Positions 970 to 49,601 of a stretch of DNA of 64,000 nt are shown piece after piece (within the stretch, counting starts at the first letter, position 1; every line of letters begins with the position of its first letter). The notes under the pieces were generated by a model, which saw only the letters and a list, made by a program, of their open reading frames with translations, was not told the origin of the DNA and did no database searches. Made by a program: the position numbers and the translations under genes. Source of the DNA: Verrucomicrobiota bacterium (GTDB lineage Bacteria > Verrucomicrobiota > Verrucomicrobiia > Limisphaerales > JAFGQR01); assembly GCA_016935555.1 (NCBI GenBank), contig JAFGQR010000022.1, forward strand, positions 15,415 to 79,414, given 5' to 3'.

Positions 970-2664
970 CTAGCGTTTGCGGTCGGGGCCGTCGTCGTCT
1001 TCGGGGCGGACGGCGACTTCGGCGGCGTCGAAGGCGTGTTGGAGGGCGACGAGGTCTTCGCCGGGTTTGAGGGAGTCGAGGAGGGCCTGTTCGGCTTTGA
1101 GTTGTTCTTGCGAATAGTTGGCGGCTTTGATGGACAACCCGATGCGGCGTTCGGTCTTATCGATCTTGATGACGCGGGCGGTGACTTCCTGGCCGACTTT
1201 GAGGACGTTCTTGATTTTCTCGATGCGTTCCTCGCTGACCTGGGAGATGTGGACCAGGCCGTCGATGTCATGCTGCAAGCCGACGAAGGCGCCGAAGCTG
1301 GCGAGTTTGGTGACCTGGCCGGTGACGAGGTCGCCGACCTTGTAGAACTGGTCGATGTTTTCCCAGGGATCGACGCTGAGTTGTTTGATGCCCATGGCGA
1401 TGCGCTGGCTGGTCTTGTCGATCTCCAGGACCACCGCCTCCACTTCCTCGCCTTTCTTCAACACTTCGGACGGGTGGTTGATCTTGCGTGTCCAGGAAAT
1501 GTCCGAGACATGGATCATGCCGTCCATGCCTTCCTCGAGTTCGATGAACGCGCCGTAGCTGGTGAGATTGCGGATCTTGCCCTTGATCCTGGTGCCGGGC
1601 GGGTATTTCTCCTGGGCCTTTTCCCAGGGATTGACTTCCAGTTGGCGAATGCCAAGGGAGATTTTTTGTTCTGCGACGTTGATGGCGAGCACGACGGCCT
1701 CGATTTCCTGGTCCTGCTTGAGCACGTCGGATGCCTTGGCGATGCGTTTGGTCCACGACAGTTCGGTCACGTGCACCAGGCCCTCGACCCCGGGCTCGAT
1801 CTCCACAAACGCGCCGTAGGGCACGAGGTTGACGACGCGGCCCTTGAGGCGCTGGTTGACGGAATACTTCTTGTCGATGTTCTCCCACGGGTTCTGCTGT
1901 TTCTGCTTGAGCCCGAGGCTGACGCGTTCCTTTTCCTTGTTGATGTCGAGCACGACGACGTCGACTTCCTGGCCGACTTTCAGCATTTCGGACGGATGCC
2001 CCACCCGGCCCCAGCTCATGTCCGTGATGTGCAGCAGGCCGTCCAAACCGTTGAGGTCGATGAACGCGCCGAAATCCGTGATGTTCTTGACCGTGCCCTT
2101 GCGGATGTCGCCGGGGGTCATCTCCGCCAGGAGCTTCGCGCGGCGCTCGGCCCGTTCGTGCTCGATGAGTTCGCGGCGGGACAGGACGATGTTCTGCCGT
2201 TCCTCGTTGATCTTGACCACCTTGAACTCGTAGGTGTTGCCCACAAACGACTGCAGGTTGCGCGGCGGCGCGATGTCCACCTGCGACGCCGGCAGGAAGG
2301 CTTCGACGCCGATGTTGACGATCAGGCCGCCCTTGACCATCGACTTGACCTTCCCGCTCACCTTGCCCCCCTCGTTGCAAATCGTCTGGATCCGGTCCCA
2401 GTTCTGCTTGAACTCCGCCTTCTCCTTCGACAACACCACCATCCCGTCCCGATCCTCCAGACGCTCGATCAGCACATCCACCTCGTCCCCGATCCGCACC
2501 ACCTTGATGTCCTCAAACTCGCCCGCCGGGATGACCCCCTCGCTCTTGTAGCCGATGTCCACCAAAACTTCCTTCGGCCGGACTTCGATGACGATGCCTT
2601 TGACGATTTCACCGGCGGCGAACTTGAACTGGCTCTGCCGCAGGGCTTCTTCCATTGTAACCAT
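970..2664 (-). CDS. rpsA: 30S ribosomal protein S1
   Basis: Six S1 repeats (GTVKNITDFGAFIDL, GLLHITDMSW, GLVHVTELSW, GMIHVSDISW, GLVHISQVS). Start set at ATG 2664 (MVTMEEAL). Confidence 0.97.
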   Translation of the reverse strand: MVTMEEALRQSQFKFAAGEIVKGIVIEVRPKEVLVDIGYKSEGVIPAGEFEDIKVVRIGDEVDVLIERLEDRDGMVVLSKEKAEFKQNWDRIQTICNEGGKVSGKVKSMVKGGLIVNIGVEAFLPASQVDIAPPRNLQSFVGNTYEFKVVKINEERQNIVLSRRELIEHERAERRAKLLAEMTPGDIRKGTVKNITDFGAFIDLNGLDGLLHITDMSWGRVGHPSEMLKVGQEVDVVVLDINKEKERVSLGLKQKQQNPWENIDKKYSVNQRLKGRVVNLVPYGAFVEIEPGVEGLVHVTELSWTKRIAKASDVLKQDQEIEAVVLAINVAEQKISLGIRQLEVNPWEKAQEKYPPGTRIKGKIRNLTSYGAFIELEEGMDGMIHVSDISWTRKINHPSEVLKKGEEVEAVVLEIDKTSQRIAMGIKQLSVDPWENIDQFYKVGDLVTGQVTKLASFGAFVGLQHDIDGLVHISQVSEERIEKIKNVLKVGQEVTARVIKIDKTERRIGLSIKAANYSQEQLKAEQALLDSLKPGEDLVALQHAFDAAEVAVRPEDDDGPDRKR

Positions 2665-2859
2665 AATGCTGATAACTCGACTGCTTTCGTACTGCGCGGT
2701 GGGAGGCTGGGTCCGGGCGCACGCGCCCGGCGAAGTCTCCATTGCCTAACCGACCGAACGTTGCGATGGCAACGGAGGGTTGAGTGTTAGGTTGCACATT
2801 GACCGATCATTTCTCAGCCGCATTGAGCGTCCGCACACGCGGCGCCCCGGCAAGCAGGG

Positions 2860-2887
2860 AGAATACGGGCGGACTCCGGGGAATCAA
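2860..2887 (-). promoter_or_regulatory. Putative sigma-70 promoter for rpsA
   Basis: Minus strand reads TTGATT-N16-TATTCT about 200 nt upstream of the rpsA start. Confidence 0.4.
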
Positions 2888-2958
2888 GGCAAAACTCCCG
2901 AAAACCTGCGGCGGGCGGTTTCGAGCAGGGTGACGTGCCGGGTGCGGAGGACTTGTTG

Positions 2959-5900
2959 TCAGAGGCTGGCGGGCTGCGTTTCGATGGGGTCGCGAAGCGC
3001 AACCAACCCGTGGGTTGTGTGGGGGCGGCCGGACGCGGGAGCGGGCAGCGCCCGCGTGTCGACGTTGCCGTTGGGGGCGAGGGGCAACGTGGGGACGATC
3101 ACGACCTGGGCCGGCACCATGTATTCGGGCAGATGCCGGCGCGCGAGTTCCCGCAGCTCGGCCGCGGCGGGGGCGGTGCCGGGTGCGGGCACGGCGTAAG
3201 CGACGAGGCGGGTGTCGCCGGTGGGGTTCACGTGGGCGACGACGGCGGTTTGGCGGACCTCGGGGTGCTGCGCGAGGGCCGTCTCGATTTCGGCCAGTTC
3301 AATCCGGTGGCCCTGCCATTCGACTTGGCGGTCGTGGCGTCCGAGGCAGTCGAGGGTCCCGTCGCTGCGGTAGCGGGCGTGGTCGCCGGTGCGGCAGAGT
3401 TGCGCGTCGGGCTCGCCCCGGAAAGGGTTGGGGACGAACCGTTCCCGGGTCAGCTCCGGCCGGTTCCAGTAGCCGCGGGCGAGGCCGTCGCCACCAATGA
3501 ACAACTCGCCCGGAACGCCCACGGGCACGGGCTGCATGGCGGCATCGAGCAGGTAGAATTGGGTGTTGGCCAGGGGGCGCCCGATGGGCACGGGTGTTTC
3601 GGGGCTGCGCACGGGGTGGAGGGCGGACGCGATGGTGGTTTCCGGGGGACCATAAGCGTTCCAGAGTGCGCCCACGCGCTCAAGCAGCCTGCGGGCGAGA
3701 TCGGGCGGGCAGGTTCCGCCGCTGCAGAGGGCGCGCAGGGAGGCGTGGCCGGCCCAGCCGGCCTGGAGCAGCCGTCGCCACGTGTCCGGGCTGGCCTGCA
3801 TGAGGGTCACCCCGTGCGCCCGGATCAAGGCGTCCAGCCGCCGTCCGTCCAGGGCGTCGTCGCGCGAGGCGATCGCGATCCGGGCGCCGTTGGCGAGGGG
3901 CAGGAAGATTTCGAGCCCGGCAATGTCCAACGACAGCGCGGCGATCGCGAGGAGGACGTCGTCGGGGCGGACGCTGAGGAGCGATTGGGCGGCGCCGAGG
4001 AAATTGACCACGGCGCGGTGGGGGATCATGACGCCGTTGGACTTGCCGTTGGAGCCCGGGGTATAGAGCACATAGGCCAGGTTGCCCGCACACGGCCCGC
4101 GCCGCGCAGCCCCCGGCGTGTCGGCTCTCGGGAAGGGAGTGTCGGGAGGAGGAAGGCCGGGTTCGGGGCGTCGGGTGACGACGACGCAATCTTCGAGGCA
4201 GAGGGCGTGCGGGGCGGGCAGGTGCAGGCGTTGTTGGAGGGGCCGCTCGGTGAGCAGGAGGGGGGCACCGGAATCGGCGAGCATGAACGCGAGGCGTTCC
4301 CGGGGCAACGCCGGGTCGAGCGGGAGATAAGCCCCGCCGGCTTTGAGAATGGCGAGGAGGGCCACGACCATTTCGGGCGACCGTTCGAGATGCACGGCGA
4401 CGAGCGTGTCGGGGCCCACGCCCTGGTTCTGGAGGCGGCGTGCGAGCTGGTCGGCGCGGGTGTTGAGGTCGCGATAGGTAAGGCGGCGTGCGCCCATTTC
4501 GACGGCGATGGCGCCGGGGGTTTGGGCGGCCTGGCTTTCGACGAGTTGATGGAGGCAGCGGTCTTTGGGGCGGGCCTGGTCGGTGGCGTTCCATTCGATG
4601 AGGATCTGGTCGCGTTCCTCGGGCGTGAGCAGCGGCAGGCGGGCGAGCCCCTGGTCGGGTTGCGCGCACGCCCCGTCGAGCAACGTCTGGTAATGGCCGA
4701 GCATGCGCCCGATGAAATCCGCCTCGAACAAATCGGTCTTGTATTCGAGCGTCACGCTCAGCGCGTCGCCCTCCTGCCGGAGGCGGCAGGCGAGGTCAGC
4801 CATGGCGGTGCCGACCTCGACTGTGCAGGGGCTGACGGTGAGGCCGGGCAGGAGGGGATCTTCGTGCGTGAGGTTTTCGAAAGCAAACAGCACCCGTAAC
4901 AGGGGGCTGGGGCCGGGGTCGCGACGGGGATTGAGCGCGGCGACGAGTGGTTCGAATGGCAGTTCGGCGTGGGCGGAGGCGTCCAGCGCGACGCTGCGTT
5001 CGCGGCGCAGCAGTTCGCGGAAGCCAAGGTCGCCGGAGAGCCGGGTGCGAAGCACGAGGGTGTTGGCGAACAGGCCGATCAGTCCCTGGGTTTCGGGCCG
5101 GGGGCGGTTGGCGACGGGGGTGCCGACGGCGATATCGTCCTGGTGGCAATAGCGGTGCAACAGGGCTTTGAACCCGGCCAGCAGCACCATGAAGAGAGTG
5201 GCGCCTTCGCGCTCGGCGAGGGCCGTCAGGGCCGTCACCAGGGGCGCCGGCAGCCGCCGGCTCAGGCTGCGCCCGTCGCAGGTCAGGACGGCGGGCCGGG
5301 GCTGGCGGGTGGGCAGGTCGAGAGGCGGCAGTTCGCCCTGCAGTTGGCCGCGCCAATACTCCAGAGCGGCCGCCCAGCCGGAGTCTTGGGCTTGTTGCCG
5401 CTGCGCCAGCACCCAGTCGGTGTAATGGAGCGCCAACGGCGCCAGATCCGGCGCGGCGCCGGCCGAGAGCCGCGCGTAGAGACGGCCGAGTTCTCCTGCC
5501 AGTATGCCCCGGGACCAGCCGTCGCAGATGACCCGATGCAGGCTCACAGCCAGGACGTGATCGTCTTCGGCAAGCCGCAGCAGTCCCGCCCGAAACAGCG
5601 GCCCCCGCGCCACATCGAATGGCCGCCGGACGAATTCGGCGGCCCATGGGACCGCGTCCGCCTCGCGGGCCGCGCGGACCACATCCAGCTTGAACCGGCT
5701 GCGCCGGCCCACCGGTGCCACTCGTTGCACGACCCGCTCGCCGTCGAGCCGGAACGTGGTGCGGAGGGGTTGGTGACGGCGGACAAGCTCACGGAAGGAT
5801 TGCTCGAGCGCGGCGACGTTCAAGGGTCCGCGGAGTCGGACGACCCAGGGAATGTTGGGGACGGGCGTGCCGGGGCTTGAGCAATGGGGCAGGCACAATG

Positions 5901-8900
5901 CTTCCTGGGCGAAGGACGCGGGGAATTCGCCGTGGGGCGGGGGAGCGGGAGCGGCTGCGGGCATCGCGGCGGGAGCGGCCTCGGGATTGGGGCAGGGCGT
6001 TTGCCGAGGCGTCGGCGCACGATCGTTCTGGGGAATCTGGCCATCGGGGGTGGTGAGCGGGGCGGGGCGCTGGAGGAGGCGACACTGGGTGGGAACGCCG
6101 AAGCGGTCGGGGAGGGCGGGCAATTCGAGGGAGGCGGGTGGCAGATGGTGGGAGGCGGTGTACGACCCCTGGAGGAAGGGGGTGGAGAGCGCGGGGTCTG
6201 GCGCCGCCTGGCGGATGAGGGGGTGGGAGGCGTCGAGGCCGACGAGGGCGGACGGATGTTGGTGGGCGAGGAGGATCTCGAGCGACTGGAGGCCTCGGTG
6301 AGCCGATGCCGGCAGGAAGCCCCGGGCTTGGGCGGAGGCGGCCCTGGGATAACGGCGGTTCATGCCCAGGTCGCGCCACATGCTCCAATGAATGCAGGCG
6401 GCGCGCCTCCGGCCGTGCCGCTGTTCGGCCAGCACGAAGCTGTCCAGGAACCGGTTGGCGGCCGCATACGCGGCGTAGCCTGGCTCGCCGAAGAACGCGT
6501 TGACGGACGAGAACCCCACGAAGAAGGCGCCGGGGTGGCGGTGCAGGAGGCGTTGCAGGGCCACGGCGCCGCCAAGCTTGGGCCGCAGCGTGGCGCGGAA
6601 GGTTTCGCGTGTTTCGGCGAGCAACGGGCGTTCGGGCGCGAGCCCGGCCAGGTGGAGCACGCCGTCCAGGCCGCATTGCCAGCGGCGGCGGGCTTGGGCG
6701 GCGGCGGCTTCGAGCTGCGATTCATCCGCGACATCGGCTTGGCCATAGATCACCTCGCCCCCGAGAACCGCCATCGTCCGCAGTGCCGCGGCGGCTTCGG
6801 TCTTGGAGAGGCGATCCGTGAGCACCAAGCGCGCGCCATATTTTTGCAGCAGGTGCCGCGCGAGTTCCTGCCCCACCCCACCCAGGGCGCCGCTGACAAG
6901 ATAGCAGCCCTGCGGGCGGAAGGCGCTTGCGGCCGCCGGCTCTTCAAAGGCCACACGCCGAAGCTCGGGCACCCAGCGCGCCCCCTGCCGGTAGGCGACT
7001 TCGGCGTCGGCGCACGGGCTGCGCCATTCCGCGCCGACGATCCCGGCGAGAGTCCGGACGCCGGCGGCGCCATCCTCGTCGGCCTCCGCATCCGGAAGGT
7101 CGATGTGGGCGCACTGGAGCCAGGGCAGTTCCTGGGGAATGGATTTCAGCAGGCCCAGCATCCCCGCGTGCAGGCAGTTGCGCGGATCGTTTTGGGAGAC
7201 GGGTTGGACGGCGGTGGAGACTGCCAGCAGGCGCACAGGCATGGAGTGATCCTGGTGGCGGGCGAGAGCCTGGGCGAGCAGGAGGATGCTGACGGCGCCG
7301 AGGTCTTGGGCATCGAGCGCCTGATCGCCGGTGAGACCGCCGACGAGGCCCGGCGTCGCGGCCTGGGTGCATGTCCACAAATGCACGATGCCGCGCACGG
7401 GATGCCCGGCGGCGCCGAGGCTGGAGACGAGCTGTGCGTAATGATCGGGCGCGCGCGGGTCGAGGCGCACGTGGCCTGGGCGGACTTGGTGATAGGTGTG
7501 GCCGGGTTCCACGACGAGGGTAGGGATGGGCAGGTGTTGCGCGACGGCCTGCCCGACGGCCAGGTTGCCGGCAAAGACCACGGCGCACCCGGCTTGCCCC
7601 CCGGCGGGGGCTCGAACGGCGCTGCGTCCGGCTCCCGGCATGACGCCGGGGTCCGCCTCGGCGCAGGCTGCAGACGCGCGGGCGCCAGCGTGCGCCCCTG
7701 CGCCCGGAGCGATGCACGAGGGGCGCGGGTTTTTCCGAATCCAGACGCGTTTGAAGAACCAGTCCGGGACGGTATTGGCATTGGCGGCGAGGACATCCAT
7801 CTGCTGCCGCGTCGCGTCGAAATCGCCCCGCTCGAACCGCGTTTTAAGTTGGGCGCGCCCCGTTTGACCGGGGGGCGTCTTGGGGAGGTCGCCGGGGCCT
7901 AACGGGATGACGACCGCGGGGGTGGCGCCAGTTTGCTGGAGGACGCGGCTGCGGATGTTCCGGGCGAGGGGTGGCCAGTCATGGGGATTGCGGCTGGCGG
8001 GGGCGAAGAAGACGGCGAGGGTGTCGGCATGGGCATGGGGCATGCGGACGGCGCAGGCGGCGGTGAAGCCGGGCTGGAGGCCGGGAACTTGTTCGGCGGC
8101 GGCTTCGATTTCGCGGCTGTGGCAGGGGACGCCCTGGATGACGAGGCGTTCCTCTGCGTGGCCGGTGACGGTGAGGCGGCCGTCGCGGATTCGGCCGACG
8201 TCGCCGGTATCGAACCAGCCGTCCGGGGTGAAGGCGTTGCGATTGAGTTCGGGCTGCCCGTAATAGCCGCGGGTGACGGTCAAGCCCCGGATTTGGACGC
8301 GGCCGATGACGCCTTCGCCCACGACGCGGCCGTCCCCGGCGGCGATGCGCAACGCGTTGCCGGGGATGGGGGCACCGACTTCGACGAAGGGATCGTCGTC
8401 GCGGCTGGTTTCGAGGGTGAAACGGTGGGAGCACGTGGTGCTGGAGCCGGTTTCCACCATGCCCCACACGGGGTGCATGGCGCGGAGGCCGTGGGGCTGC
8501 AGCAACTGCAGGAAGCGGCGGGCGGTGCGGGTGACGATGGTCTCGCCGCCGCAGAGGACGTAGCGGAGCCGGGACAGGTCCCAGCGATGCTCGGCGAGCG
8601 CGGCGGCGCAGTCGTTGACCAGGCCGAACGCGGTGTTGGAGCCGAACGTGACGGTGACGCGGTAGGTTTCGAGCCAATCGAGCCACTGAAGGGGATGCTC
8701 AAGAACGAGGGTGGGGGGGGCATGGATCTGCTGGCACTGCACGTGGGTGTCGCGAAGGTGGAAGTCGATGATGCCGGCGGCGTGGTCCAGCGGCATCCAA
8801 TTGAGGCTCACGTCATCGGCCGTGAGCCCGTTGAGTTGGACGCAGCCGAGCGTGCGGCTGATGAGGTTGCGATGACTGAGCATGACCAGCCTGGGCAGTC

Positions 8901-11394
8901 CGCTGCCGTCCCGGGCAGTCATCAGCAGCGCCACGTCGTCGGGCCGGCCACGGTGCCACCGGGTGTCCGGCTCGGTCGTCAACAGGTCGGGCACCGTCGC
9001 CACCGGCAGGTTGGGCCACCCCGCCGCGTCCGCCAGAGCCTTCAGGGCAGCCGCCAGCCGCGGACTCGCCAGGACGAGCTGCGCCTGGCTCACTTGGGCG
9101 GCGCGGATGAGTTTGCTGACGGCGTCTTCGGCCGGGTCGCCGCTGTCGGCCGCCGCGACCGGCACGGGAACGAATCCGCCGAGGATGCACCCCCAGAACG
9201 CCGCGACGAACTCGGCCTGGCGGTCGAGTTGAAAGAGGATTTTGTCCTGCGGCTTCAATCCCAGCCGGCGCAGTCCGCCCAGCATCCGCTGGGACTGGTC
9301 GAGCAGCGTTCCATAGGTCATCGCCAGCTCCGTTCCAGCCGCCTCCAAAAACACGAGCCGGTGCGTGGACTCATACGCCGCCCGCGACAGGACGTCCGCC
9401 AGCAACTGCGGCGCATTGGGCGCCACGCGCAGTTCCCCGCCGTCGGCTAGGGCGGGTTTCAGCACGGCACCGGTTCCGGAGGATTCGGAATCTGTCGCCG
9501 TCTCAGGCGCGAGCGTGTCTCGGGAGGTCTCGTGGAAGCCCTGCCGCGGGGGCGGAACGGGATCGGGTTCGGGGCCGGGATTGGGGGGGATGGGCATTTC
9601 GGGGGCGAGCAGGCGCGTGATGTGCAGGGCGGGCAGGGGAGGGAGGCGGTGTTCGACGGCCACGGCCACCTCGCGGATTCCGGGCACGCTGCGGAGGGCG
9701 GCTTCCCACCGGCGGCACAATTCCTCGTCGAGCACGGGCAGGGCGCGCAGCGCGGCCTCGTCGACTTGGCCGTCGGGGGTCAGAGGAAGGGCGCTGAGGG
9801 GCACCCAGGCGCTGGGCCGCTGGGCGGGGGGCAGACGCTGGCGGAGCCGGGCCACGCACGGTTCGAACGCCGCGGGCGTGCTGGGGACGACATAAGCGGC
9901 GAGTTCGACGCGGCCCTGCGCGGCCTGTTTGGCGAGCACCGCGCACTCAGCGATGTCGGGATCGTCCTGCAAAGCGGCGGCGACGGCGGCGGCTTGCGGT
10001 TCGGGTTGCCAGGAGGGCAATGCGCCCAACGGGGCATCGGGAGATGCCGCCACCTGCTGGAGGAGGTCCAGAAACCGATCCCGCATCAGGCTGGCGCTGG
10101 AGGCGGCAAACAGGTCGGTGGCGCAGGTCAAACACGCCTCGAGCGCGCCGCGGCTTTCCGTCAACTCGAGCGTCAGATCCAACAAGGTCGCCACGCGGTC
10201 GCCGGGTTCGACCCAGAGCGCGACGCCGCCCATCTCTGCGAAAGGCGCGCCGGCGTTATGGAGGGCGAACATGACCTGAACCAGCGGCGATTGGCCCGAT
10301 GGCGGCTCCGGCGCGAGATCCTGGACGACGCGCTCAAAGGGGAGGTCCTGGTGGGCGAAGGCGGCGAGGGCGGTGCGGCGGGTGCGTTGCACCAACTGGC
10401 GGAACGTGGGCGAGCCGGTCAAGTCCGCCCGCAATGCCAACGTGTTGACAAAGCGCCCGATCAACGGCTCCGTCTCCGCCCAGGGCCTGCCGGCGACCGG
10501 GGTGCCGACGGCGAAATCGGCCTGGCCGGTGCTGCGATGCAGAAAGGCGTTGAAGGCCGCCAGCAGGGTCATGAACAGCGTTGCATCCTCCTGCCGCCCG
10601 ACCGCCGCCAGCGCCGCCACCGGCGCCTGGGGCAGCGCGAACCGCAGGGCCGCGCCCTGTCGGATGGGCGTGCGAGGGCCCGGATGGTCGGCGGGCAGGT
10701 CCAGAGGCGGCACGGGACCGGCGAGGTGCTCTCTCCAAAAAGCCAGTTGTTGACCGGCGGACTCGGACTCCAGCCACGCGCGTTGCCAGGCGGCGAAGTC
10801 GGCGTATTGGATGGGGAGAGGCGGCAGCACGGGGGCGAGTCGTCTGACGCGGGCCGAGTAGGCGGTTCGGAGTTCGCGCCACAGGACGGCGAGAGACCAC
10901 GCGTCGCCGGCGATGTGGTGCAGCGTGAGGAGGAGCCAATGGCAAGTGGGATCCCGGCGCACGAGGCGGGCGCGGAGCACCGAGTCCCGCGACAGATCGA
11001 ACGGGCGCAGGGCTTCTTCGCGGGCCAGGGCCAGGGCGGCGGCCTCGCGGTCGCCGCGGGGCAGCGGGCTCAGATCGGAGGTGGCCAGTTCCACGGGCCG
11101 CGAGGGGTGAACGAACTGGCGGGGCTCTCCCTCGCAAGCGGCGTAGGTGGTTCGCAGGATTTCGTGGCGTGCGACAATATCGTTCAGGGCGGCTTGGAGC
11201 GCCGAATCGTCGAGGGGCCCGGTGAGGCGGACCGTCTCAGCCAGGTTGCAGCCGCAGCTGACGGTTTCGAGTGGATGGAGCAACCAGAGCCGCTGCTGTG
11301 CGGAGGAGAGGGCCAGCGGTTCGTGGCGGCGAAGGGTGGGGATGGGCTGGGATTGCCAGCCGTCACGAAGTTGAGCAGCAACGTGATGCGACAT
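2959..11394 (-). CDS. NRPS-like protein C-pseudoAsub-A(keto-acid type)-KR-C-A with degenerate catalytic motifs, no intact T or TE domain
   Basis: C1: SSAQQRLW, HHIAGDAWS. A1: NWMPLDHAAGII, WGMVET, FDTGD. KR: SGALGGVG, FSS, YAAAN. C2: RHQPLRT, HRVICDGWS. A2: LKAGGAYLPLDP, NAYGPPE, RIELAEIE. No GGxS phosphopantetheine motif seen. Confidence 0.9.
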   Translation of the reverse strand: MSHHVAAQLRDGWQSQPIPTLRRHEPLALSSAQQRLWLLHPLETVSCGCNLAETVRLTGPLDDSALQAALNDIVARHEILRTTYAACEGEPRQFVHPSRPVELATSDLSPLPRGDREAAALALAREEALRPFDLSRDSVLRARLVRRDPTCHWLLLTLHHIAGDAWSLAVLWRELRTAYSARVRRLAPVLPPLPIQYADFAAWQRAWLESESAGQQLAFWREHLAGPVPPLDLPADHPGPRTPIRQGAALRFALPQAPVAALAAVGRQEDATLFMTLLAAFNAFLHRSTGQADFAVGTPVAGRPWAETEPLIGRFVNTLALRADLTGSPTFRQLVQRTRRTALAAFAHQDLPFERVVQDLAPEPPSGQSPLVQVMFALHNAGAPFAEMGGVALWVEPGDRVATLLDLTLELTESRGALEACLTCATDLFAASSASLMRDRFLDLLQQVAASPDAPLGALPSWQPEPQAAAVAAALQDDPDIAECAVLAKQAAQGRVELAAYVVPSTPAAFEPCVARLRQRLPPAQRPSAWVPLSALPLTPDGQVDEAALRALPVLDEELCRRWEAALRSVPGIREVAVAVEHRLPPLPALHITRLLAPEMPIPPNPGPEPDPVPPPRQGFHETSRDTLAPETATDSESSGTGAVLKPALADGGELRVAPNAPQLLADVLSRAAYESTHRLVFLEAAGTELAMTYGTLLDQSQRMLGGLRRLGLKPQDKILFQLDRQAEFVAAFWGCILGGFVPVPVAAADSGDPAEDAVSKLIRAAQVSQAQLVLASPRLAAALKALADAAGWPNLPVATVPDLLTTEPDTRWHRGRPDDVALLMTARDGSGLPRLVMLSHRNLISRTLGCVQLNGLTADDVSLNWMPLDHAAGIIDFHLRDTHVQCQQIHAPPTLVLEHPLQWLDWLETYRVTVTFGSNTAFGLVNDCAAALAEHRWDLSRLRYVLCGGETIVTRTARRFLQLLQPHGLRAMHPVWGMVETGSSTTCSHRFTLETSRDDDPFVEVGAPIPGNALRIAAGDGRVVGEGVIGRVQIRGLTVTRGYYGQPELNRNAFTPDGWFDTGDVGRIRDGRLTVTGHAEERLVIQGVPCHSREIEAAAEQVPGLQPGFTAACAVRMPHAHADTLAVFFAPASRNPHDWPPLARNIRSRVLQQTGATPAVVIPLGPGDLPKTPPGQTGRAQLKTRFERGDFDATRQQMDVLAANANTVPDWFFKRVWIRKNPRPSCIAPGAGAHAGARASAACAEADPGVMPGAGRSAVRAPAGGQAGCAVVFAGNLAVGQAVAQHLPIPTLVVEPGHTYHQVRPGHVRLDPRAPDHYAQLVSSLGAAGHPVRGIVHLWTCTQAATPGLVGGLTGDQALDAQDLGAVSILLLAQALARHQDHSMPVRLLAVSTAVQPVSQNDPRNCLHAGMLGLLKSIPQELPWLQCAHIDLPDAEADEDGAAGVRTLAGIVGAEWRSPCADAEVAYRQGARWVPELRRVAFEEPAAASAFRPQGCYLVSGALGGVGQELARHLLQKYGARLVLTDRLSKTEAAAALRTMAVLGGEVIYGQADVADESQLEAAAAQARRRWQCGLDGVLHLAGLAPERPLLAETRETFRATLRPKLGGAVALQRLLHRHPGAFFVGFSSVNAFFGEPGYAAYAAANRFLDSFVLAEQRHGRRRAACIHWSMWRDLGMNRRYPRAASAQARGFLPASAHRGLQSLEILLAHQHPSALVGLDASHPLIRQAAPDPALSTPFLQGSYTASHHLPPASLELPALPDRFGVPTQCRLLQRPAPLTTPDGQIPQNDRAPTPRQTPCPNPEAAPAAMPAAAPAPPPHGEFPASFAQEALCLPHCSSPGTPVPNIPWVVRLRGPLNVAALEQSFRELVRRHQPLRTTFRLDGERVVQRVAPVGRRSRFKLDVVRAAREADAVPWAAEFVRRPFDVARGPLFRAGLLRLAEDDHVLAVSLHRVICDGWSRGILAGELGRLYARLSAGAAPDLAPLALHYTDWVLAQRQQAQDSGWAAALEYWRGQLQGELPPLDLPTRQPRPAVLTCDGRSLSRRLPAPLVTALTALAEREGATLFMVLLAGFKALLHRYCHQDDIAVGTPVANRPRPETQGLIGLFANTLVLRTRLSGDLGFRELLRRERSVALDASAHAELPFEPLVAALNPRRDPGPSPLLRVLFAFENLTHEDPLLPGLTVSPCTVEVGTAMADLACRLRQEGDALSVTLEYKTDLFEADFIGRMLGHYQTLLDGACAQPDQGLARLPLLTPEERDQILIEWNATDQARPKDRCLHQLVESQAAQTPGAIAVEMGARRLTYRDLNTRADQLARRLQNQGVGPDTLVAVHLERSPEMVVALLAILKAGGAYLPLDPALPRERLAFMLADSGAPLLLTERPLQQRLHLPAPHALCLEDCVVVTRRPEPGLPPPDTPFPRADTPGAARRGPCAGNLAYVLYTPGSNGKSNGVMIPHRAVVNFLGAAQSLLSVRPDDVLLAIAALSLDIAGLEIFLPLANGARIAIASRDDALDGRRLDALIRAHGVTLMQASPDTWRRLLQAGWAGHASLRALCSGGTCPPDLARRLLERVGALWNAYGPPETTIASALHPVRSPETPVPIGRPLANTQFYLLDAAMQPVPVGVPGELFIGGDGLARGYWNRPELTRERFVPNPFRGEPDAQLCRTGDHARYRSDGTLDCLGRHDRQVEWQGHRIELAEIETALAQHPEVRQTAVVAHVNPTGDTRLVAYAVPAPGTAPAAAELRELARRHLPEYMVPAQVVIVPTLPLAPNGNVDTRALPAPASGRPHTTHGLVALRDPIETQPASL

Positions 11395-11513
11395 CGCTTT
11401 AGGGCTGACGCCAAACGGCTTCAGCGGCGGGGACCTGCCTTTCGCGGGCGCAGAATCCCCCTAGTACATCGTCAGCCCGGCACGAAACTGTTGTCGCCTC
11501 CAACTGGCGCTCC

Positions 11514-12668
11514 TCACAGGGCGCGTTCGAGGATTTCGCAAAGGTCGTCCGCCTCAAGCGGCAGGGGATTGGCTTTCATGCTGCTGGCGCCGCTTGCCAG
11601 CTCGCAGAGGCGGCTCATGTGGGCTGCCGACACCCCATAAGCGCGCAATGGGGGAATGCTCATGGCCGCACCAAGGTCTCGCACCCAGGCGATGCCCTCT
11701 GCGCTCGACGCGCCGGCGTTGCCGGTCAGCAGGCGCGCCACTTCGGCGTAGCGTTCCAGCGCGGGGTTGTCGGGTTGGCGCTGCCGAAGGCCGCGCACGT
11801 TCACGTCCATGACCACTGCCAGTAACGCGGCGCACACGGCGCCGTGCGGCGCCTCGAAGCTGCCCCCGATGGGCGCCGCAAAGCCGTGCACGGCGCCAAG
11901 CCCCGCGTGGGCGAGTGCGAACCCGCTGAAGAGGCTGGCCAAGGCCATGTCTTCCCGCGCGGCGGCGTTCTGTCCGTCGTCAAACGCGGCTTTCAACGAT
12001 CGCGCCACCCGCGGGATGGCCTCCCGGCACAACGCATCGGCAAACGGATTCGCCCGGCGGCACACATACGCCTCGATCAGCTGGGTCAATGCATCCAAAC
12101 CCGTCGCCGCCGTCAGCGATGGCGGCAGCGTCCGCGTCAGCTCCGGGTCCACCACGGCCAGCCGCGCCGGCAGCAGCGGGCTGCGCAGGCTTGCTTTGAC
12201 GCCATGCTCCGGCGATGCCAGGACCGCGTTTCGCGTCACTTCAGCACCCGTGCCCGCCGTCGTGGGAATGGCCATCCAAGGCGCAGGCGGCTTCAACAGG
12301 GGTTGGGCGCGTCCGACAATTTCAAGGTAATCGAGGAGATCTCCGGAATTGGTCAGCAACCCGGCAACCGCCTTGGCGGCGTCAATGACGCTGCCGCCGC
12401 CATACCCCACGACCATGTCGCATCGGCTTGTTTTCGCCTCGGCGATGGCGCGCTGGACCAGGGCGATGGTGGGTTCGCCCGTCACGCCAAACCGAACCGC
12501 CTCCACCTTGGCTTCCTCCATGATGGCACTCAATGGCCCGAGCCGGCTCGCATCCCGCCCGCACACCACCAATGCCCGGCGACCCAACCCGCGCATCAGC
12601 GGCGCCGCCTCGCGGATTGTCCCGGGCCCGAACAGGATTCGGGTCGGGATGGCGATTTCAAAGTGCAT
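11514..12668 (-). CDS. Iron-containing alcohol dehydrogenase
   Basis: GGGSVIDAAKA, IPTTAGTGAEVT, GLDALTQLIEAY, GLGAVHG and PHG motifs. Start at ATG 12668 (MHFEIAIP). Confidence 0.93.
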   Translation of the reverse strand: MHFEIAIPTRILFGPGTIREAAPLMRGLGRRALVVCGRDASRLGPLSAIMEEAKVEAVRFGVTGEPTIALVQRAIAEAKTSRCDMVVGYGGGSVIDAAKAVAGLLTNSGDLLDYLEIVGRAQPLLKPPAPWMAIPTTAGTGAEVTRNAVLASPEHGVKASLRSPLLPARLAVVDPELTRTLPPSLTAATGLDALTQLIEAYVCRRANPFADALCREAIPRVARSLKAAFDDGQNAAAREDMALASLFSGFALAHAGLGAVHGFAAPIGGSFEAPHGAVCAALLAVVMDVNVRGLRQRQPDNPALERYAEVARLLTGNAGASSAEGIAWVRDLGAAMSIPPLRAYGVSAAHMSRLCELASGASSMKANPLPLEADDLCEILERAL

Positions 12669-12854
12669 CAGGTTGCGATCGGCCGCATGCCGCACACGGC
12701 CGCAAGCGCGTTGCGGGCCGCCCGCTGCCGTTGTCAGCGGCACTGCACCCGGCTTGGCAAGGCGCGCAACAGCCTGGCGGCATCTTGCTTTTTCGACGGC
12801 CGCCGAGGGCGGCCATGGAGGGTGGGGCAGTAGGGCAGCGACGTTATGCGCTGC

Positions 12855-13964
12855 TCAGGTGAGGCGCATGGGCATGACGACATAGAGGAATGGCCCGTTG
12901 ATTTTCAGGACGCCCGGGCTCAGCTCGTCGATAAGCTCGATGAATACCTCGTCCTCACTCAGTGCGGCAAGCGGTTCGATCATGTAGGCCGGGTTGAAGG
13001 CAATGGCCATATCCTTGCCCTTGTAATTGATCGCCATGCTCTCCCGAGCCTCGCCGACTTCCGGCGAATTGGCCGTGATGGCGAGGTTGTTTTTCGTGAA
13101 CGTCAACCTGACCGAGTTCTGCTTCTCGCTGGTCATGATTTCGGCGCGCTTCAACGCGTGCATGAGTTCCTCGCGCGAGACGGCAATACGCTCTTTGGTC
13201 TCAGCCGGGATCACTTGCCGGTAGTTGGGGTATGTGCCCTCGATCAGTTTGGTGACCAACTGGATCTGCGGCCCTTTTTCCTGCCTCAGATCGAACGAGG
13301 CCTGGTTTTCCGAGAAGACAATCTCGACCTCTCCCGTATCGCTCAGGAGCCGGCCGAGTTCGGCCACGGCCTTCGCAGGGACGATGCAATCGCCCTGGCT
13401 CTTCTCGGTAACGTCGACATCCTCCTCGGCAAGCGCAAGGCGGCGGCCATCCGTAGCCACCATGATCAGCTTGTGCTCCCTGAGGCTGATGAAAATCCCG
13501 TTCAACACATAGCGGGATTCGTCCGCGGAAATTGCAAACGACGTCTTCTTCAGCATCCCCTTGAGTCTGTCCTGCGCAATGGTGAATTTCCTATCCTCCT
13601 TGGGCTTGGGCAGCGGCGGGAACTCCTCCGCACCCAGGCCGCGGATTTTGAAAAACGACGCGCCGGCCCGCAGGCTGGTGACATTCTTGTCGTCGACATC
13701 GAGTTCCAGTTCAAGATTGGCCAGTTCACGTGCGATGCTCCAGATCTTTTTGACGGGCATGGTGGTGGTGCCGGCGCGCTTGACGGCCGCTTCCACCGAA
13801 CACGTCACTGTCACATCCAGATCCGTCGCGGTCAGCTCCAGTCGGTTTTCCTGCGTCCGCAGCAACACGTTGGACAAAATCGGCAGAGTCGTCCGGGTGC
13901 TGACCACGTTTTGAACGGATTGAAGCCCGTTCAACATTTGCTCTTTCGAGATGACAAGGTTCAT
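12855..13964 (-). CDS. dnaN: DNA polymerase III beta sliding clamp
   Basis: TLPILSNVL, ATDLD, SRYVLNG, VATDGRRLA, EGTYPNY and C-terminal VVMPMR. Confidence 0.98.
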   Translation of the reverse strand: MNLVISKEQMLNGLQSVQNVVSTRTTLPILSNVLLRTQENRLELTATDLDVTVTCSVEAAVKRAGTTTMPVKKIWSIARELANLELELDVDDKNVTSLRAGASFFKIRGLGAEEFPPLPKPKEDRKFTIAQDRLKGMLKKTSFAISADESRYVLNGIFISLREHKLIMVATDGRRLALAEEDVDVTEKSQGDCIVPAKAVAELGRLLSDTGEVEIVFSENQASFDLRQEKGPQIQLVTKLIEGTYPNYRQVIPAETKERIAVSREELMHALKRAEIMTSEKQNSVRLTFTKNNLAITANSPEVGEARESMAINYKGKDMAIAFNPAYMIEPLAALSEDEVFIELIDELSPGVLKINGPFLYVVMPMRLT

Positions 13965-14368
13965 CGAGTGTTACTTTGACGGCCTTCCGTACATGCTTCC
14001 AGACTCTTAATAGGCAGTGTCAATAGGGGAAACAACCGATGCTGTCAAGGCTATGCCAACGATTTAGCCGTGCCCTGGTCTGTGAACAACTCCACTAATA
14101 AAGGCGTGCTTTCGCGGAAAAGTGCGTGTTGTGCGCTAGTCCCACAAATTGTTCCATGCGTCTTCGATAATGTCTGAAAGGGTTGTTCCCATGCTGGGCG
14201 AGGCCATCCCATGGCACTACTGAGAGGCGGGTATGGTGTGTCAATATGGCGCGGGATTTGGACGAACGCCAAGTCCAGAGCGCCCGCAAGGCTGCGCCGT
14301 GCACCGGGTGCAGCCATGTCGGCTGCTTCGCGCTTGCCGCGGGTTATGGATCCTTTAGGTTAGGGCAC

Positions 14369-15070
14369 ATGTTGAAGCCGAGAGATCTATTCGACCTGCA
14401 GCAAACGGACCATGGCGCATTATTTGACGGGTGCGAATATGCCTGGGACGCTTTAAAGCGGTTGAGGGCTTATGTGGAGGAGCACTTGGTGGCGGGACTG
14501 CGGAACCGTTGCGAGGGAAGCGCGTTCATCGGCGAGCGCGTGTTTATCGGGGAGGAGACTATTGTTGAGGATGGGGCGATGATTAAGGGTCCGGCGATCA
14601 TTGGCAGGAAGTGCCGGATTCGGCACAACGCGTATATCCGGGAGGATGTGATTGTTGGCGACGAATGCACGGTGGGCAACGCCTGTGAGCTGAAGCACAG
14701 CCTGCTGTTCAACGGCGCTGAAGTGCCGCATTTCAATTATGTCGGCGATTCGATCCTTGGTCACGAGGCGCATTTGGGGGCGGGCGTGAAGATTTCAAAC
14801 CTGAAAGTTGTTCCTGGGAACGTCGTGGTGGAGTTGGACGGCCGCGTGTGGGACACGGGCTTGCGAAAGTTCGGGGCGTTATTGGGGGACGGATCGGATG
14901 TGGGTTGCAACGCCGTGCTCAACCCCGGCAGCATTATCGGTCCCGGGTCAATCATCTACCCGTGCACGCACTGGCGCGGCATTCTGGCGCCGCGCATGAT
15001 TGCGAAAAACCAAGCTGCGATCCAGGTGGTCGCCAGGCAACCCCGCACTGAAACGCCGAGGCCGGAATGA
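14369..15070 (+). CDS. Hexapeptide-repeat acetyltransferase (stand-alone GlmU C-terminal-like domain)
   Basis: Left-handed beta-helix repeats, PHFNYVGDSILG, KFGALLGD, GCNAVLNPG. No N-terminal nucleotidyltransferase domain. Confidence 0.85.
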   Translation: MLKPRDLFDLQQTDHGALFDGCEYAWDALKRLRAYVEEHLVAGLRNRCEGSAFIGERVFIGEETIVEDGAMIKGPAIIGRKCRIRHNAYIREDVIVGDECTVGNACELKHSLLFNGAEVPHFNYVGDSILGHEAHLGAGVKISNLKVVPGNVVVELDGRVWDTGLRKFGALLGDGSDVGCNAVLNPGSIIGPGSIIYPCTHWRGILAPRMIAKNQAAIQVVARQPRTETPRPE

Positions 15071-15137
15071 CGTTGATGAGCGGCGGCCTTGCGCGGCGAG
15101 CCCGGGTGAGCGATCCTATGCGGCGGGAGGGTTCGTC

Positions 15138-17294
15138 ATGATCAGTGCCATCGACCCACAGCCGGCCGGCTCGGATTTGGTTACACAGGTGGAGGCCATG
15201 TTTTCTCCAAGCGGGCTGCTGTCGCGCTCGCCGAATTTCGAGTATCGGCCGCAGCAGCAGCAGATGGCGGTGGGGGTGGCGAGGGCGTTAGTGGGGGGGG
15301 GGGATTTGGCGGTGGAGGCGGGGACAGGGGTGGGGAAGAGTCTGGCGTACCTGATTCCAGCGATCCTATTCGCAACGGCGCAGCGCAAGAAGGCGGTGGT
15401 ATCGACGCACACCATCAACTTGCAGGAACAGCTGATCGACAAGGATCTGCCCATGCTGCAGCGGATCCTGCAGGTTCCGTTCAGGCATGCCATGCTCAAG
15501 GGACGCGCGAATTACCTGTGCACGCACCGCCTGCACAAGGCACTGCGCCATGCCGAGAGTCTCTTCACCTCACCTGAAATCGAGGAACTCAAACGCATCG
15601 CCCAATGGGCTGCTGAGACCCGGGATGGCAGCCTCTCCGACTTCGAGGTTGAGCCCGACATGAAGGTGTGGGCCAGCGTCTGCTCCGAACGCGGCCTTTG
15701 CTCCCCCAAGATCTGCGGACCCGGCTCCGAGTTTGCCAGAGACCACCCGGTGTGCTTTTTCCAGCGCGCGCGGCAGCGGATTCTGTCGGCCGACGTGCTT
15801 GTGCTGAACCACACGCTTTTTTTCACGCTGCTTGGGGCGGTCGAACAGTCCGTGAAAGGCGGCATTCTGTTCCGCAACGACTTTCTGATTTTCGACGAGG
15901 CCCACACGCTGGAACAGGTGGCGTCGCGGCACATTGGCCTGAGCCTGTCGCACGCGCAATTGCGCTTCACCCTGCAGCGGCTCTACAACCCGAACACCCA
16001 AAAAGGGCTTCTGGCCACCCTGCGCCGCGCGCGCGAAATCCCGCGGGTTGCCGAGGTGCTGGTCCACGCCGAAAGGTTCTTTGCCGAGGTGGAAGAGGCG
16101 TGCGAGGCGCTGCGTGCCCGGGGTCGCGGACGGCGTGCCGAGGGCGGGGATGGTGGCGGCGCTGAGAAGGGCCGGCAGTGGAGCGAATTACGGATTCGGC
16201 GGCCGGAGCTGGTCAGGGACGATGTGAGTTTGCCGCTGCAACGGGTTCGTGAAGCGGTGAGCGAGCTGGTGAAGAGCAGCGACGACGAGCAGACGGGCTT
16301 GGAATTGCTCGAGTGCAATCGCCGGCTGGGCGAGTTGCGCGACGGGATTGCGTTTTTCCTGAGCCAGGCCGCCGAAGACCATGTGTACTGGGTCGAACGC
16401 ACCGGACGCGCCCGGCGCAACCTCGCCCTGTGCGCCGCGCCCATCGATGTCGCCGGCTACCTGCGCCGGCGCTTGTTCGACAGCGACACCTCGGTGATCC
16501 TCACCAGCGCCACCCTCGCTGTCTCCAGCCCCTCAACCCACCCATCCCCAGGAGCCGGCCCCGGGGGTGTTCGCGCCAAAACCGGGGGCTCGCTCCCCGG
16601 GGCGCGGCGGTCGGGGGCGGGCACTCTGGATTATTTCGCGGGGCGGGTGGGGGCGGAGGCGGCGGTGCTGTTGCAGGTCGGGTCGCCCTTCAACTATGAG
16701 CGGCAGGTGAAGCTGTTCGTTGTCGCCCAAATGCCCGACCCGCGCTCCGCGGAGTATCGGGATGCGCTGCGTCATTGGATCGAACATTTTGTGATGCTGA
16801 CGCATGGCAAGGCGTTTGTGTTGTTCACGAATTTCAAGCTCATGCAGGAGATCGCCGGCCTCATGGAGCCGTTCTTCGAGCGGCTCGGTGTCGAATGCCT
16901 CGTCCAAGGCACCGGCACCCCGCGCTCGCTCATGCTGGAGAAGTTCAAGGAGAACATCGATTCGGTCCTGTTCGGCACGGACAGCTTCTGGCAGGGTGTG
17001 GATGTTCCTGGCGAAGCCCTGTCGAACGTCATCATCACACGCCTGCCCTTTGCCGTCCCCGATCACCCGCTTGTCGAGGCGCGCATCGAAGCCATCGAGG
17101 CCCGCGGTGGCAACTCGTTTGCCGAATTCTCCCTGCCCGAGGCCATCCTCAAGTTCCGACAGGGCATCGGCCGCCTCATCCGGCAGAAAACGGATCACGG
17201 CATCGTGGTTGTCCTGGACAACCGGGTTCTGACCAAGTCCTACGGCCAGGCCTTCCTCAGCGCCGCGCCCGCGTGTCCTGTCGAAATCGTCTGA
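15138..17294 (+). CDS. DinG/YoaA-family ATP-dependent DNA helicase
   Basis: Q motif (YRPQQ), EAGTGVGKSLAYL, KGRANYLC, FeS-type Cys cluster, DEAH, TSATL, FWQGVDVPG, QGIGRLIR. Confidence 0.95.
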   Translation: MISAIDPQPAGSDLVTQVEAMFSPSGLLSRSPNFEYRPQQQQMAVGVARALVGGGDLAVEAGTGVGKSLAYLIPAILFATAQRKKAVVSTHTINLQEQLIDKDLPMLQRILQVPFRHAMLKGRANYLCTHRLHKALRHAESLFTSPEIEELKRIAQWAAETRDGSLSDFEVEPDMKVWASVCSERGLCSPKICGPGSEFARDHPVCFFQRARQRILSADVLVLNHTLFFTLLGAVEQSVKGGILFRNDFLIFDEAHTLEQVASRHIGLSLSHAQLRFTLQRLYNPNTQKGLLATLRRAREIPRVAEVLVHAERFFAEVEEACEALRARGRGRRAEGGDGGGAEKGRQWSELRIRRPELVRDDVSLPLQRVREAVSELVKSSDDEQTGLELLECNRRLGELRDGIAFFLSQAAEDHVYWVERTGRARRNLALCAAPIDVAGYLRRRLFDSDTSVILTSATLAVSSPSTHPSPGAGPGGVRAKTGGSLPGARRSGAGTLDYFAGRVGAEAAVLLQVGSPFNYERQVKLFVVAQMPDPRSAEYRDALRHWIEHFVMLTHGKAFVLFTNFKLMQEIAGLMEPFFERLGVECLVQGTGTPRSLMLEKFKENIDSVLFGTDSFWQGVDVPGEALSNVIITRLPFAVPDHPLVEARIEAIEARGGNSFAEFSLPEAILKFRQGIGRLIRQKTDHGIVVVLDNRVLTKSYGQAFLSAAPACPVEIV

Positions 17295-47626: not shown

Positions 47627-49267
47627 TTAATAGTCCATGTCGCCCATGCCGCCGTGTCCCGGAGGCCCGCCGGCCGGTTTCTTTTCCTTTTCGGGGATTT
47701 CCGTCACCAGGCATTCGGTGGTGAGGAGCAGTCCGGCGATGGAGGCGGCGTTTTGGAGGGCGGTGCGGGTGACCTTCTTGGGGTCCACCACCCCGGCCTT
47801 GACGAGGTCTTCGTAGTCGTCGGTGGAGACGTTGTAGCCCTCGTTGCCCTTGCGTTTCTTGACTTCCTCGACGACGACGGAGCCTTCGACCCCGGCGTTG
47901 TCGGCGAGCGCGCGGGTGGGGAACTCGACGGCGCGTTTGACGATGTCGACGCCAATCCGCTCGTCGTCGTTGGCGGGCTTGACCGTGTCGATGGCGGAGA
48001 TGCAGCGCAGGAGCGCGACGCCGCCGCCGGGCACGATGCCTTCTTCGACGGCTGCGCGGGTGGCGTGCAGGGCGTCTTCGACGCGGGCTTTTTTCTCCTT
48101 CATTTCGGTTTCGGTCGCGGCGCCGACATTGATGACGGCGACGCCGCCGGCGAGTTTGGCGAGGCGTTCCTGGAGTTTCTCGCGGTCGTAGTCGGAGGTG
48201 GTTTCCTCGATCTGGCGCCGGATCTGGTTGATGCGGCCCTGGATTTCGGAGCTCTTGCCGTAGCCTTCGACGATGGTGGTGTTTTCCTTGTCGACCACGA
48301 TGTTCTTGGCGCGGCCCAAGTCGCTCAATTCGAGGTTCTCGAGCTTGATGCCGAGGTCTTCCGTGATGCACTTGCCGCCGGTGAGGATGGCGATGTCCTC
48401 GAGCATGGCTTTGCGGCGGTCGCCGAAGCCGGGGGCCTTGACGGCGCAGCAGTTCAGGGTGCCGCGCAGTTTGTTGACGACCAGGGTGGCCAGCGCCTCG
48501 CCCTCGACTTCCTCGGAGCAGATGAGCAGGGGCTTGCCGACCTTGGCGATTTTCTCGAGCAGCGGCAGCAGGTCTTTGAGGCTGCTGATCTTTTTCTCGT
48601 AGATGAGGATGTAGGCTTCCTCAAGCTTGGCTTCCATGGTTTCGGCGTTGGTGACGAAGTAGGGGGAGAGGTAGCCCTTGTCGAACTGCATGCCTTCGAC
48701 CACCTCGAGGGTGGTTTCGATCGACTTGGCTTCCTCGACGGTGATGGTGCCGTCCTTGCCCACCTTGTCCATGGCGTCGGCGATGATTTCGCCGATGGTG
48801 GTGTCCCAGTTGGCCGACACGGTGGCGACCTGCTTGATCTCCTCCTTGTCCTTGACCTTCTTGGCAATCTTGTCGAGCTGCGTCACGGCCGCCTCGACCG
48901 CTTTGGAAACGCCGCGCTGGATGCCGATCGGGTTGGCGCCGGAGGTGACGAACTTCAGGCCTTCGCGGTAGATGGCCTCCGCGAGGACCGTCGCCGTCGT
49001 GGTGCCGTCGCCGGCGGCGTCGCTGGTCTTGCTCGCCACTTCGCGCACCATCTGGGCCCCCATGTTTTCATAGGGATCCTCAAGCTCGATTTCCTTGGCG
49101 ACGGTGACGCCGTCCTTGGTGACGGTGGGGGAGCCGAATTTTTTGTCGAGCACCACGTTGCGGCCTTTGGGGCCGAGCGTGGCGGTGACGGCTCTGGAGA
49201 GTTTGGCGACGCCGCGCAGGATGGCCTGGCGGGCGGCTTCGTCAAAGATGAGTTGTTTGGCTGCCAT
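47627..49267 (-). CDS. groEL: Chaperonin GroEL
   Basis: [34 protein letters not shown] tail. Confidence 0.99.
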
Positions 49268-49307
49268 AAATGTGTTGGGGAGTTACGAATTGAAGGTTGC
49301 AGGGGGG

Positions 49308-49601
49308 TTATTGAATGACGCCGAGAATGTCGTCGGAGTTGAGGATCTTGAATTCCTTGCCGTCCAACTTGATCTCGGTGCCGCCGTACTTGCTGACCAG
49401 GACGCGGTCGCCGACTTTGACCTCGAACGGGATCTTCTTGCCGTCGTCATCGGTCTTGCCCGTGCCCAACGCGCGCACGATGCCTTCCGTGGGTTTTTCC
49501 TTGGCGGTGTCCGGAATGATGATGCCGCCTTTTTTCACTTCCTTCTCTTCGACGGGTTCCACGAGAACCCGGTCGCCGAGGGGTTTTAACTTGATGGCCA
49601 T
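49308..49601 (-). CDS. groES: Co-chaperonin GroES
   Basis: [31 protein letters not shown]. Confidence 0.99.

Follow-up and report, generated by a model that had tools for sequence, protein, structure and literature searches.

A probable dead remnant of a depsipeptide-type synthetase with a long open frame in a Verrucomicrobiota genome

The window which we have analysed is a stretch of 64,000 nucleotides from a Verrucomicrobiota bacterium (assembly GCA_016935555.1, contig JAFGQR010000022.1, positions 15,415 to 79,414). On its minus strand, at 2959..11394, there is a single uninterrupted frame of 2811 amino acids (aa) which ends in a TGA stop. As far as its sequence tells, the gene is a subunit of a known kind of two-module depsipeptide nonribosomal peptide synthetase (NRPS) and is now a remnant. 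We consider it a dead synthetase, most likely in decay: its carrier domains are gone, its adenylation domains have lost their catalytic residues and excess change is found throughout the protein. An earlier sequence-only reading had proposed a protein with targeted loss of catalysis, kept by selection for another role. The loss of catalysis is borne out by our analysis, its targeted character is not.

Domain organization

The NRPS folds recognized in the translation are confirmed by Pfam: two Condensation, two AMP-binding, KR and AMP-binding_C. The Condensation matches are at aa 27-459 and aa 1822-2265 (306.2 and 304.1 bits). The first AMP-binding match (aa 684-1045, 154 bits) is a keto-acid ligase-type adenylation domain (KAL), followed by KR at aa 1281-1675. 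The second adenylation domain, A2, is matched by AMP-binding and AMP-binding_C at aa 2286-2776 (282.5 and 61.3 bits). Another AMP-binding_C match of 35.9 bits lies between C1 and KAL, at about aa 472-542. The order of domains is C1, Ax/pseudo-Asub remnant, KAL, KR, a missing T, C2, A2 and a cut T (Table 1). The pseudo-Asub was reportedly described by Alonzo et al. in 2020, together with the original structure.

The region of about aa 470-1790 is covered by a single BLASTP alignment with 24 pseudoAsub-KAL-KR-T proteins, at 32-40% identity over 1,330-1,390 columns; their sources are cyanobacteria, actinobacteria and metagenomes. The best solved relative is PDB 6ULW (E 2.3e-177). Both results show that the first adenylation domain, which had been taken for an amino-acid A domain (A1), is a KAL of the StsA/CrpD-M2 kind. 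The Ax remnant occupies about 130 aa between C1 and KAL and aligns with the N-termini of three homologs (P0012, P0006 and P0009). These have Q or H at the A10 position, so that the Gln found there in the remnant is not a lesion. The C2-A2 half is an ordinary C-A pair, which aligns at full length with its nearest relatives, mostly C-A-T-TE termination modules.

6ULW is the StsA KAL-KR structure (PMC13643306, 2026). In that paper two types of module are distinguished: C-KAL-KR-T, as in CrpD-M2, and C-Ax-KAL-KR-T, as in Dol15D-M2 and PyrG. There the modules are said to originate from insertion of a keto-acid ligase in an A domain of older date, followed by degeneration of the latter; part of Ax, with motifs A6-A10, is retained in many four-domain modules. 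The paper also documents that Ax domains, although catalytically attenuated or dead, are kept for a structural role inside working modules (PMC13643306).

Table 1. Position of the domains, altered motifs and neighbouring genes in the window
Feature	Position	Strand	Remarks
C1 condensation	10018..11316	-	aa 27-459; Pfam; HHIAGD kept
Ax remnant (A9-A10 part, pseudo-Asub element)	9595..9981	-	aa 472-600; AMP-binding_C
KAL (keto-acid ligase-type adenylation)	7819..9393	-	aa 668-1192; PDB 6ULW match
KAL P-loop TARDGSGLPRL	8887-8919	-	translation
KAL GHAEE	8149-8163	-	translation
KAL PKTPPGQTGR	7855-7884	-	translation
KR	6205..7554	-	aa 1281-1730; Pfam
Post-KR A10-like piece (PLTTPDGQIP) and Pro/Ala linker	5938..6204	-	alignment with 24 homologs
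C2 condensation	4585..5937	-	aa 1820-2270; Pfam 304.5 bits
C2 HRVICDG	5518-5538	-	translation
A2 amino-acid adenylation	3034..4539	-	aa 2286-2787; Pfam
A2 YTPGSNGKSNG	4033-4065	-	translation
A2 GRHDRQVEWQG	3310-3342	-	translation
A2 NGNVDT	3055-3072	-	translation
Relic, start of terminal T domain	2926..3012	-	hidden Markov model and homolog alignment; TGA at 2959-2961
Spacer without counterpart in the same-genus genome	2827..2958	-	homology to its rpsA locus resumes at 2826
rpsA	970-2742	-	
Fe-ADH gene	11514-12743	-	
dnaN	12855-13964	-	

Loss of the carrier domains

No carrier is left in this protein. Pfam finds no PP-binding match in it at E<=0.1. A T-domain hidden Markov model (HMM), built from the 24 KAL-KR-T homologs and searched at E<=10 with filters off, matches 119 of 120 proteins: the sole exception is the window protein. 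The 130 aa between KR and C2 have no Pfam family at E<=1. About 35 Pro/Ala-rich residues link the post-KR piece to C2, at the place where the homologs have a T domain of about 75 residues.

The nearest homologs can be aligned with the C-terminus as far as LVALRDPIETQPASL, up to one residue before the Trp of the 'IWxxVL' helix of the T domain. The TGA codon at 2959-2961 stands in the position of this Trp, found in the eight homologs printed (8/8); the ancestral frame is thus interrupted by a nonsense codon. The relic before the stop has 17 N-terminal residues, and likeness to the HMM extends about 11 codons beyond it. When the stop is read through, the T-domain HMM gives 3.6 bits, a score reached by none of 150 random genome stretches, each with 64 trial read-throughs. 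No T core or TE was found downstream of the stop. A frameshifted T core after the stop (F.E...DS, in another frame) was also considered: 64 junctions with X give 4.4 bits vs 3.6, and this candidate was dropped. Pfam, the HMM and the alignment thus agree with the earlier description: no T after KR, a truncated final T and no TE.

Catalytic residues

Assembly-line chemistry requires a phosphopantetheinyl carrier, the A10 Lys, the P-loop and the second His of HHxxxDG. All the degenerate motifs quoted in the sequence-only reading are present in the translation (Table 1). Canonical P-loop, A8 and A10 motifs, which compensated frameshifts might have hidden, were not found in the remaining two frames.

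KAL retains neither its P-loop nor the Arg and Lys of A8 nor the Lys of A10 (T827A, S828R, G829D, S830G, T831S, K835R, R1079H, K1081E, K1177Q), all of them in columns invariant in 24/24 homologs. A2 is altered in A3, A5, A7, A8 and A10: S2446P, T2449N, P2452S, K2453N, T2584P, K2692E, R2694Q and K2777N. In its homologs S2446, P2452, K2453, K2692 and K2777 are found in 80/80, R2694 in 79/80 and T2449 in 78/80; the nearest A2 relatives, with 52-54% identity, all have canonical A3, A5, A7, A8 and A10 and a T domain. C2 has lost its catalytic His (H1954R; His in 80/80 homologs), and also shows the changes W1834C and D2030R.

C1 had been considered intact: its HHxxxD motif is indeed kept (HHIAGDA), but three residues invariant in 80/80 homologs are lost, and its changes at conserved columns include R239G, R364P and Y424C. 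In KR the catalytic motif is intact, as had been noted, with K1606, S1630 and Y1643 retained. Its two exceptions are Gly changes at the nucleotide-binding strand, in the cofactor site: G1503A (Ala in 4/73 homologs) and G1527D (Asp in 2/73).

The claim that the protein is unable to act as an assembly line therefore holds. It has no T; the P-loop, A8 and A10 Lys of both KAL and A2 are gone and the second His of C2 is Arg: the assembly-line function is dead.

Partners in the genome

The source genome has 5.29 Mb in 200 contigs and is 93.6% complete. A search of it for a free-standing T domain or another NRPS gave neither. There are no C domains besides C1 and C2. The only Pfam PP-binding match is acpP, between fabG and fabF, and the T-domain HMM finds only this ACP gene in a six-frame translation of the genome. 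The remaining AMP-binding matches are acyl-CoA-ligase-like genes, 27-28% identical. One Sfp/HetI-like phosphopantetheinyl transferase (PPTase) is present at G000:C128:36166-36954 (L132:1667-2455, minus), with 183.4 bits, below the 370-bit cut-off. This single broad enzyme probably serves fatty-acid synthesis, since no AcpS-type match was found in the genome.

Judged from the sequence, the protein cannot make a peptide, because the genome has no carrier beyond acpP, no partner synthetase and no working adenylation domain. A working unorthodox synthetase, with carrier and adenylating partners acting in trans, is on these grounds very improbable, in spite of the intact C1 and KR motifs and the presence of a PPTase: C2 has Arg for its catalytic His, and neither adenylation domain has kept its P-loop or its A10 Lys.

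General relaxation of constraint

We have compared each domain with its homologs in three ways, as shown in Table 2. The window protein deviates at conserved columns 2-4 times as much as working homologs in all large domains. The homolog medians are 0.07-0.08 for the fraction of columns changed and +0.28 to +0.51 for the mean BLOSUM62 score of the changes; random single-base changes are expected to give -0.45 to -0.80. The BLOSUM62 values of the window protein are intermediate between working homologs and this neutral expectation. The branches of KAL and C1 have about twice the length of the sister branches.

Table 2. Change in each domain of the window protein. Columns conserved in at least 90% of homologs were compared with 24 homologs for KAL, KR and Ax, and with 80 for C1, C2 and A2. 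Fraction changed refers to columns conserved in at least 80% of homologs, mean BLOSUM62 to the changes. Branch lengths are from FastTree trees, measured from the parent node
Domain	Conserved columns changed	Homologs	Fraction changed	Mean BLOSUM62	Branch, window protein	Branch, sister
KAL	32/128 (invariant 17/57)	median 4.5, maximum 14	0.29	-0.02	0.753	0.375
KR	11/81 (invariant 2/30)	median 2, maximum 17	0.22	-0.07	0.837	0.990
Ax remnant	2/17	median 0, maximum 5			0.785	0.928
C1	9/95	median 3; 9 reached by 3/80	0.21	-0.31	0.856	0.447
C2	18/103	median 4, maximum 9	0.24	-0.51	0.871	0.661
A2	14/108	median 4, maximum 11	0.16	-0.08	0.642	0.606

The idea that catalytic residues had been lost in a targeted way is not upheld by these results: excess radical change is found in all large domains, the C1 and KAL branches are longer, a nonsense codon closes the frame and synteny breaks at the gene, which is absent from the single other genome of the genus. 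Constraint appears to be relaxed across the whole protein, most in KAL, C1 and C2, least in the catalytic half of KR and in A2. With excess radical change in all domains, the protein is most likely en route to loss.

Locus and neighbouring genes

The 8.4-kb frame of 2811 codons stands as first described. Other open reading frames (ORFs) inside 2959-11394 have up to 329 codons on the same strand and up to 702 on the opposite one; the latter is as expected, because the G+C content is about 70%. Region 2530-15286 is matched by a 12,757-nt DNA contig of the probable source run (0 differences, depth about 20). This contig spans the gene and its junctions, which excludes an assembly patchwork. In two metatranscriptome runs of the source study one 172-nt X3 contig corresponds exactly to 4277-4448, and the remaining pieces have about 20-40 nt; such contigs do not show strand or level, and DNA carry-over is possible. 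Promoter and terminator scans at both ends of the NRPS ORF gave nothing above shuffled controls, and Rfam has 0 matches in the window. The NRPS ORF has 0.7% Lys, at the 4.6th percentile of long ORFs. Elsewhere in the window, region 48001-54000 has a G+C content of 0.52-0.63 vs about 0.67 in the rest.

The neighbours are rpsA, an alcohol dehydrogenase (ADH) and dnaN, as identified from the translation; the ADH is a Fe-ADH. The genes dnaN, ADH, NRPS ORF and rpsA follow each other on the minus strand with short gaps on both sides of the NRPS ORF (119 and 216 bp). By its dnaN relatives the organism belongs to Verrucomicrobiota, among MAGs (metagenome-assembled genomes) similar to Limisphaerales. 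The closest relative of dnaN is found in a genome of the same genus (G001), with 86% identity. This genome shares the order helicase, hexapeptide transferase, dnaN and Fe-ADH (window 11514-12743 vs L097:11121-12275), and synteny breaks directly after the ADH, where the NRPS remnant begins. Past the break, the next genes of G001 are on other contigs in the source genome, and the rpsA of G001 is elsewhere. G001 has no comparable NRPS; its best match is 27%. Upstream of rpsA the conservation with G001 covers 84 bp and ends at 2826. The rpsA of G001 itself (G001:C36:21513-23270, L096) is found as overlapping pieces with in-frame TGA and TAA, indicating frameshifts or errors in the assembly of that MAG.

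Relatives were sought in 40 related genomes, 5.8 billion proteins (of similar and of shorter length), metagenome contigs and, for the KR region, 1.84 billion representatives. In none of these collections is there a relative closer than 43-60% identity. The closest piece is P0213, a 265-aa metagenome fragment with 60% identity to aa 801-1063 (KAL). Its P-loop, TSGSTAAAKL, is also degenerate, at positions which differ from those changed in the window protein. This hints at an unsampled lineage in which ATP binding by KAL may already have been relaxed. Another protein, P0136 (1539 aa, on a 187-kb contig), has a partial A, pseudo-Asub, KAL and KR and ends just after KR. It has no T by either the Pfam listing or the T-domain HMM, and may be a carrier-less unit or a split gene. 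A literature search on NRPS pseudoenzymes gave only the dolastatin 15 study.

History of the gene and the open frame

According to the explanation which we favour, a dead and probably decaying remnant of a depsipeptide-type subunit, the ancestor would have had the order C, (Ax remnant), KAL, KR, T, C, A, T(-TE). In such an ancestor an alpha-keto acid would have been the substrate of module 1, converted on its carrier to a hydroxy acid and attached to a chain arriving from upstream; addition of an amino acid and release of the product would have fallen to module 2. The internal T has been removed in frame. The terminal T is cut by the TGA at its conserved Trp, and the remainder was lost at the rearrangement which placed rpsA downstream. 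In KAL, C2 and A2 the residues for ATP binding and catalysis have been replaced.

Several features are difficult to reconcile with simple decay, the open frame in the first place. Upstream of the terminal TGA there are 0 stops or frameshifts over 2811 codons. The G+C content at third codon positions is 0.842 vs a genome median of 0.836 and codon periodicity is intact. The reading frame was also preserved when the internal T was lost and when the KAL P-loop changed its length by one residue. The catalytic half of KR retains 24/26 conserved columns when compared with 73 homologs. Decay is also uneven, with KR and A2 branches no longer than those of their sisters.

We have simulated neutral drift by point substitutions, with 200 runs per setting and two mutation spectra; insertions and deletions were excluded and would lower the odds of an open frame. 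Random substitutions create a stop in the NRPS ORF in 1.4-2.7% of cases, which corresponds to 0.018-0.040 stops per amino-acid change. The probability of finding no stop is 0.025 to 0.125 when 4% of the residues are changed, 0 to 0.02 when 8% are changed and 0 to 0.005 at 14%. The excess change found at conserved columns is 8-22%, depending on the domain. A purely neutral history since inactivation is therefore unlikely, because simulated drift of the size needed nearly always gives stops; under the favoured explanation the frame would have stayed open longer than such drift predicts. The earlier argument that an open frame with targeted losses fits selection better than random decay is thus correct in one part, as neutral drift rarely leaves it open, and fails in the other, as the loss is not targeted. 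The open frame, the in-frame losses and the uneven decay are in agreement with a constraint of some kind which still acts on the protein or on its translation. Candidate causes are a residual function, most plausibly that of KR, the cost of truncated products and polarity on rpsA.

Alternative explanations

A retained role different from synthesis is possible. The protein may have been repurposed and kept by selection after its assembly-line function was lost, a reading which we consider rather unlikely. The likeliest seat of such a role would be KR, which would use NAD(P)H to reduce a keto substrate, either free or bound to CoA, while the dead domains form a scaffold; C1 as an acyltransferase is a second possibility. 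The improbability of an open frame under neutral drift and the deletion of domains in frame would be explained in this way, as would the good state of the KR catalytic half with its K, S and Y, the retained HHxxxD of C1 and the KR, pseudo-Asub and A2 branches, which are not lengthened. Dead A domains with a structural role are documented in the KAL module family, in the paper on Ax (PMC13643306), and the P-loop of P0213 is also odd, at other positions. However, conservation is not demonstrable without an ortholog in the same-genus genome or in the databases searched. Excess radical change is also present in C1 and in KR as a whole (0.21 and 0.22 vs 0.08), and G1527D lies at the end of the cofactor-binding strand. 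Furthermore the KRs of this family use substrates bound to a carrier, of which this protein has none; its locus is rearranged and a nonsense codon closes the frame. It is equally doubtful, or slightly more so, that we have here a true pseudo-synthetase: a 300-kDa scaffold under selection, in which free-standing enzyme activity would come from KR, perhaps also from C1, and the dead domains would be structural or bind ligands.

An indirect constraint is improbable. Provided that rpsA relies in part on transcripts which read through from the ORF, stops would be selected against through polarity on this essential gene downstream, while amino-acid changes would be free. The common strand and short gaps of the four genes are in agreement with this, as is the presence of radical change in all domains of an open frame. 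Neither a terminator-like site downstream of the ORF nor a sigma-70-like promoter ahead of rpsA turned up, but the promoter consensus used is of the E. coli type and may not apply to Verrucomicrobia. On the other hand rpsA probably carries its own control region, because the 84 bp upstream of it are conserved in the same-genus genome. Also the uneven decay from domain to domain is not expected if only the frame matters.

The dead remnant of a depsipeptide-type subunit is thus the explanation which we retain. The open frame is a real oddity; known from a single MAG, the gene ranks as a curiosity rather than as an established pseudoenzyme. Should it be no more than a remnant, it illustrates the death of an assembly-line gene, in which carriers and catalytic residues are the first to disappear and fold and frame outlast them. 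It is also a caution for genome mining, as a long NRPS ORF with good scores may be inert. If selection has kept its frame, we would have here a rare instance of a megasynthase which has become a pseudoenzyme, and with it a natural test of the abilities of a carrier-less KAL-KR unit.

Comparison with known systems

The modules CrpD-M2, Dol15D-M2/PyrG and StsA share with the window protein the order C, Ax/pseudo-Asub remnant, KAL, KR and post-KR A10-like piece. Homologs of this kind also share the Gln at the A10 position of the Ax remnant and the K, S and Y of KR. They differ by the T after KR, present in all 24 aligned homologs and absent here, and by their KAL motifs: the window protein has ARDGS..R for TSGST..K, H..E for the A8 R..K and Q for the A10 K.

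The second half resembles terminal C-A-T-TE modules (among them P0329, P0325 and P0312), with which C2-A2 aligns at full length and A2 is 52-54% identical; the Pfam scores of the two C domains of the window protein are in a similar range. It differs from them by the HR in C2, by the altered A3, A5, A7, A8 and A10, by its cut T and by having no TE. Ax domains, as described in PMC13643306, are similar in that an adenylation fold outlasts the loss of its A3 motif and of catalysis; however their modules keep a working KAL and a T, whereas the window protein loads nothing.

With ordinary pseudogenes and remnants of biosynthetic gene clusters the gene shares an orphan state, a rearranged locus, an excess of radical substitutions, the absence of former partner genes and a last domain interrupted by a nonsense codon. 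It is set apart from them by its 8.4 kb free of stops and frameshifts.

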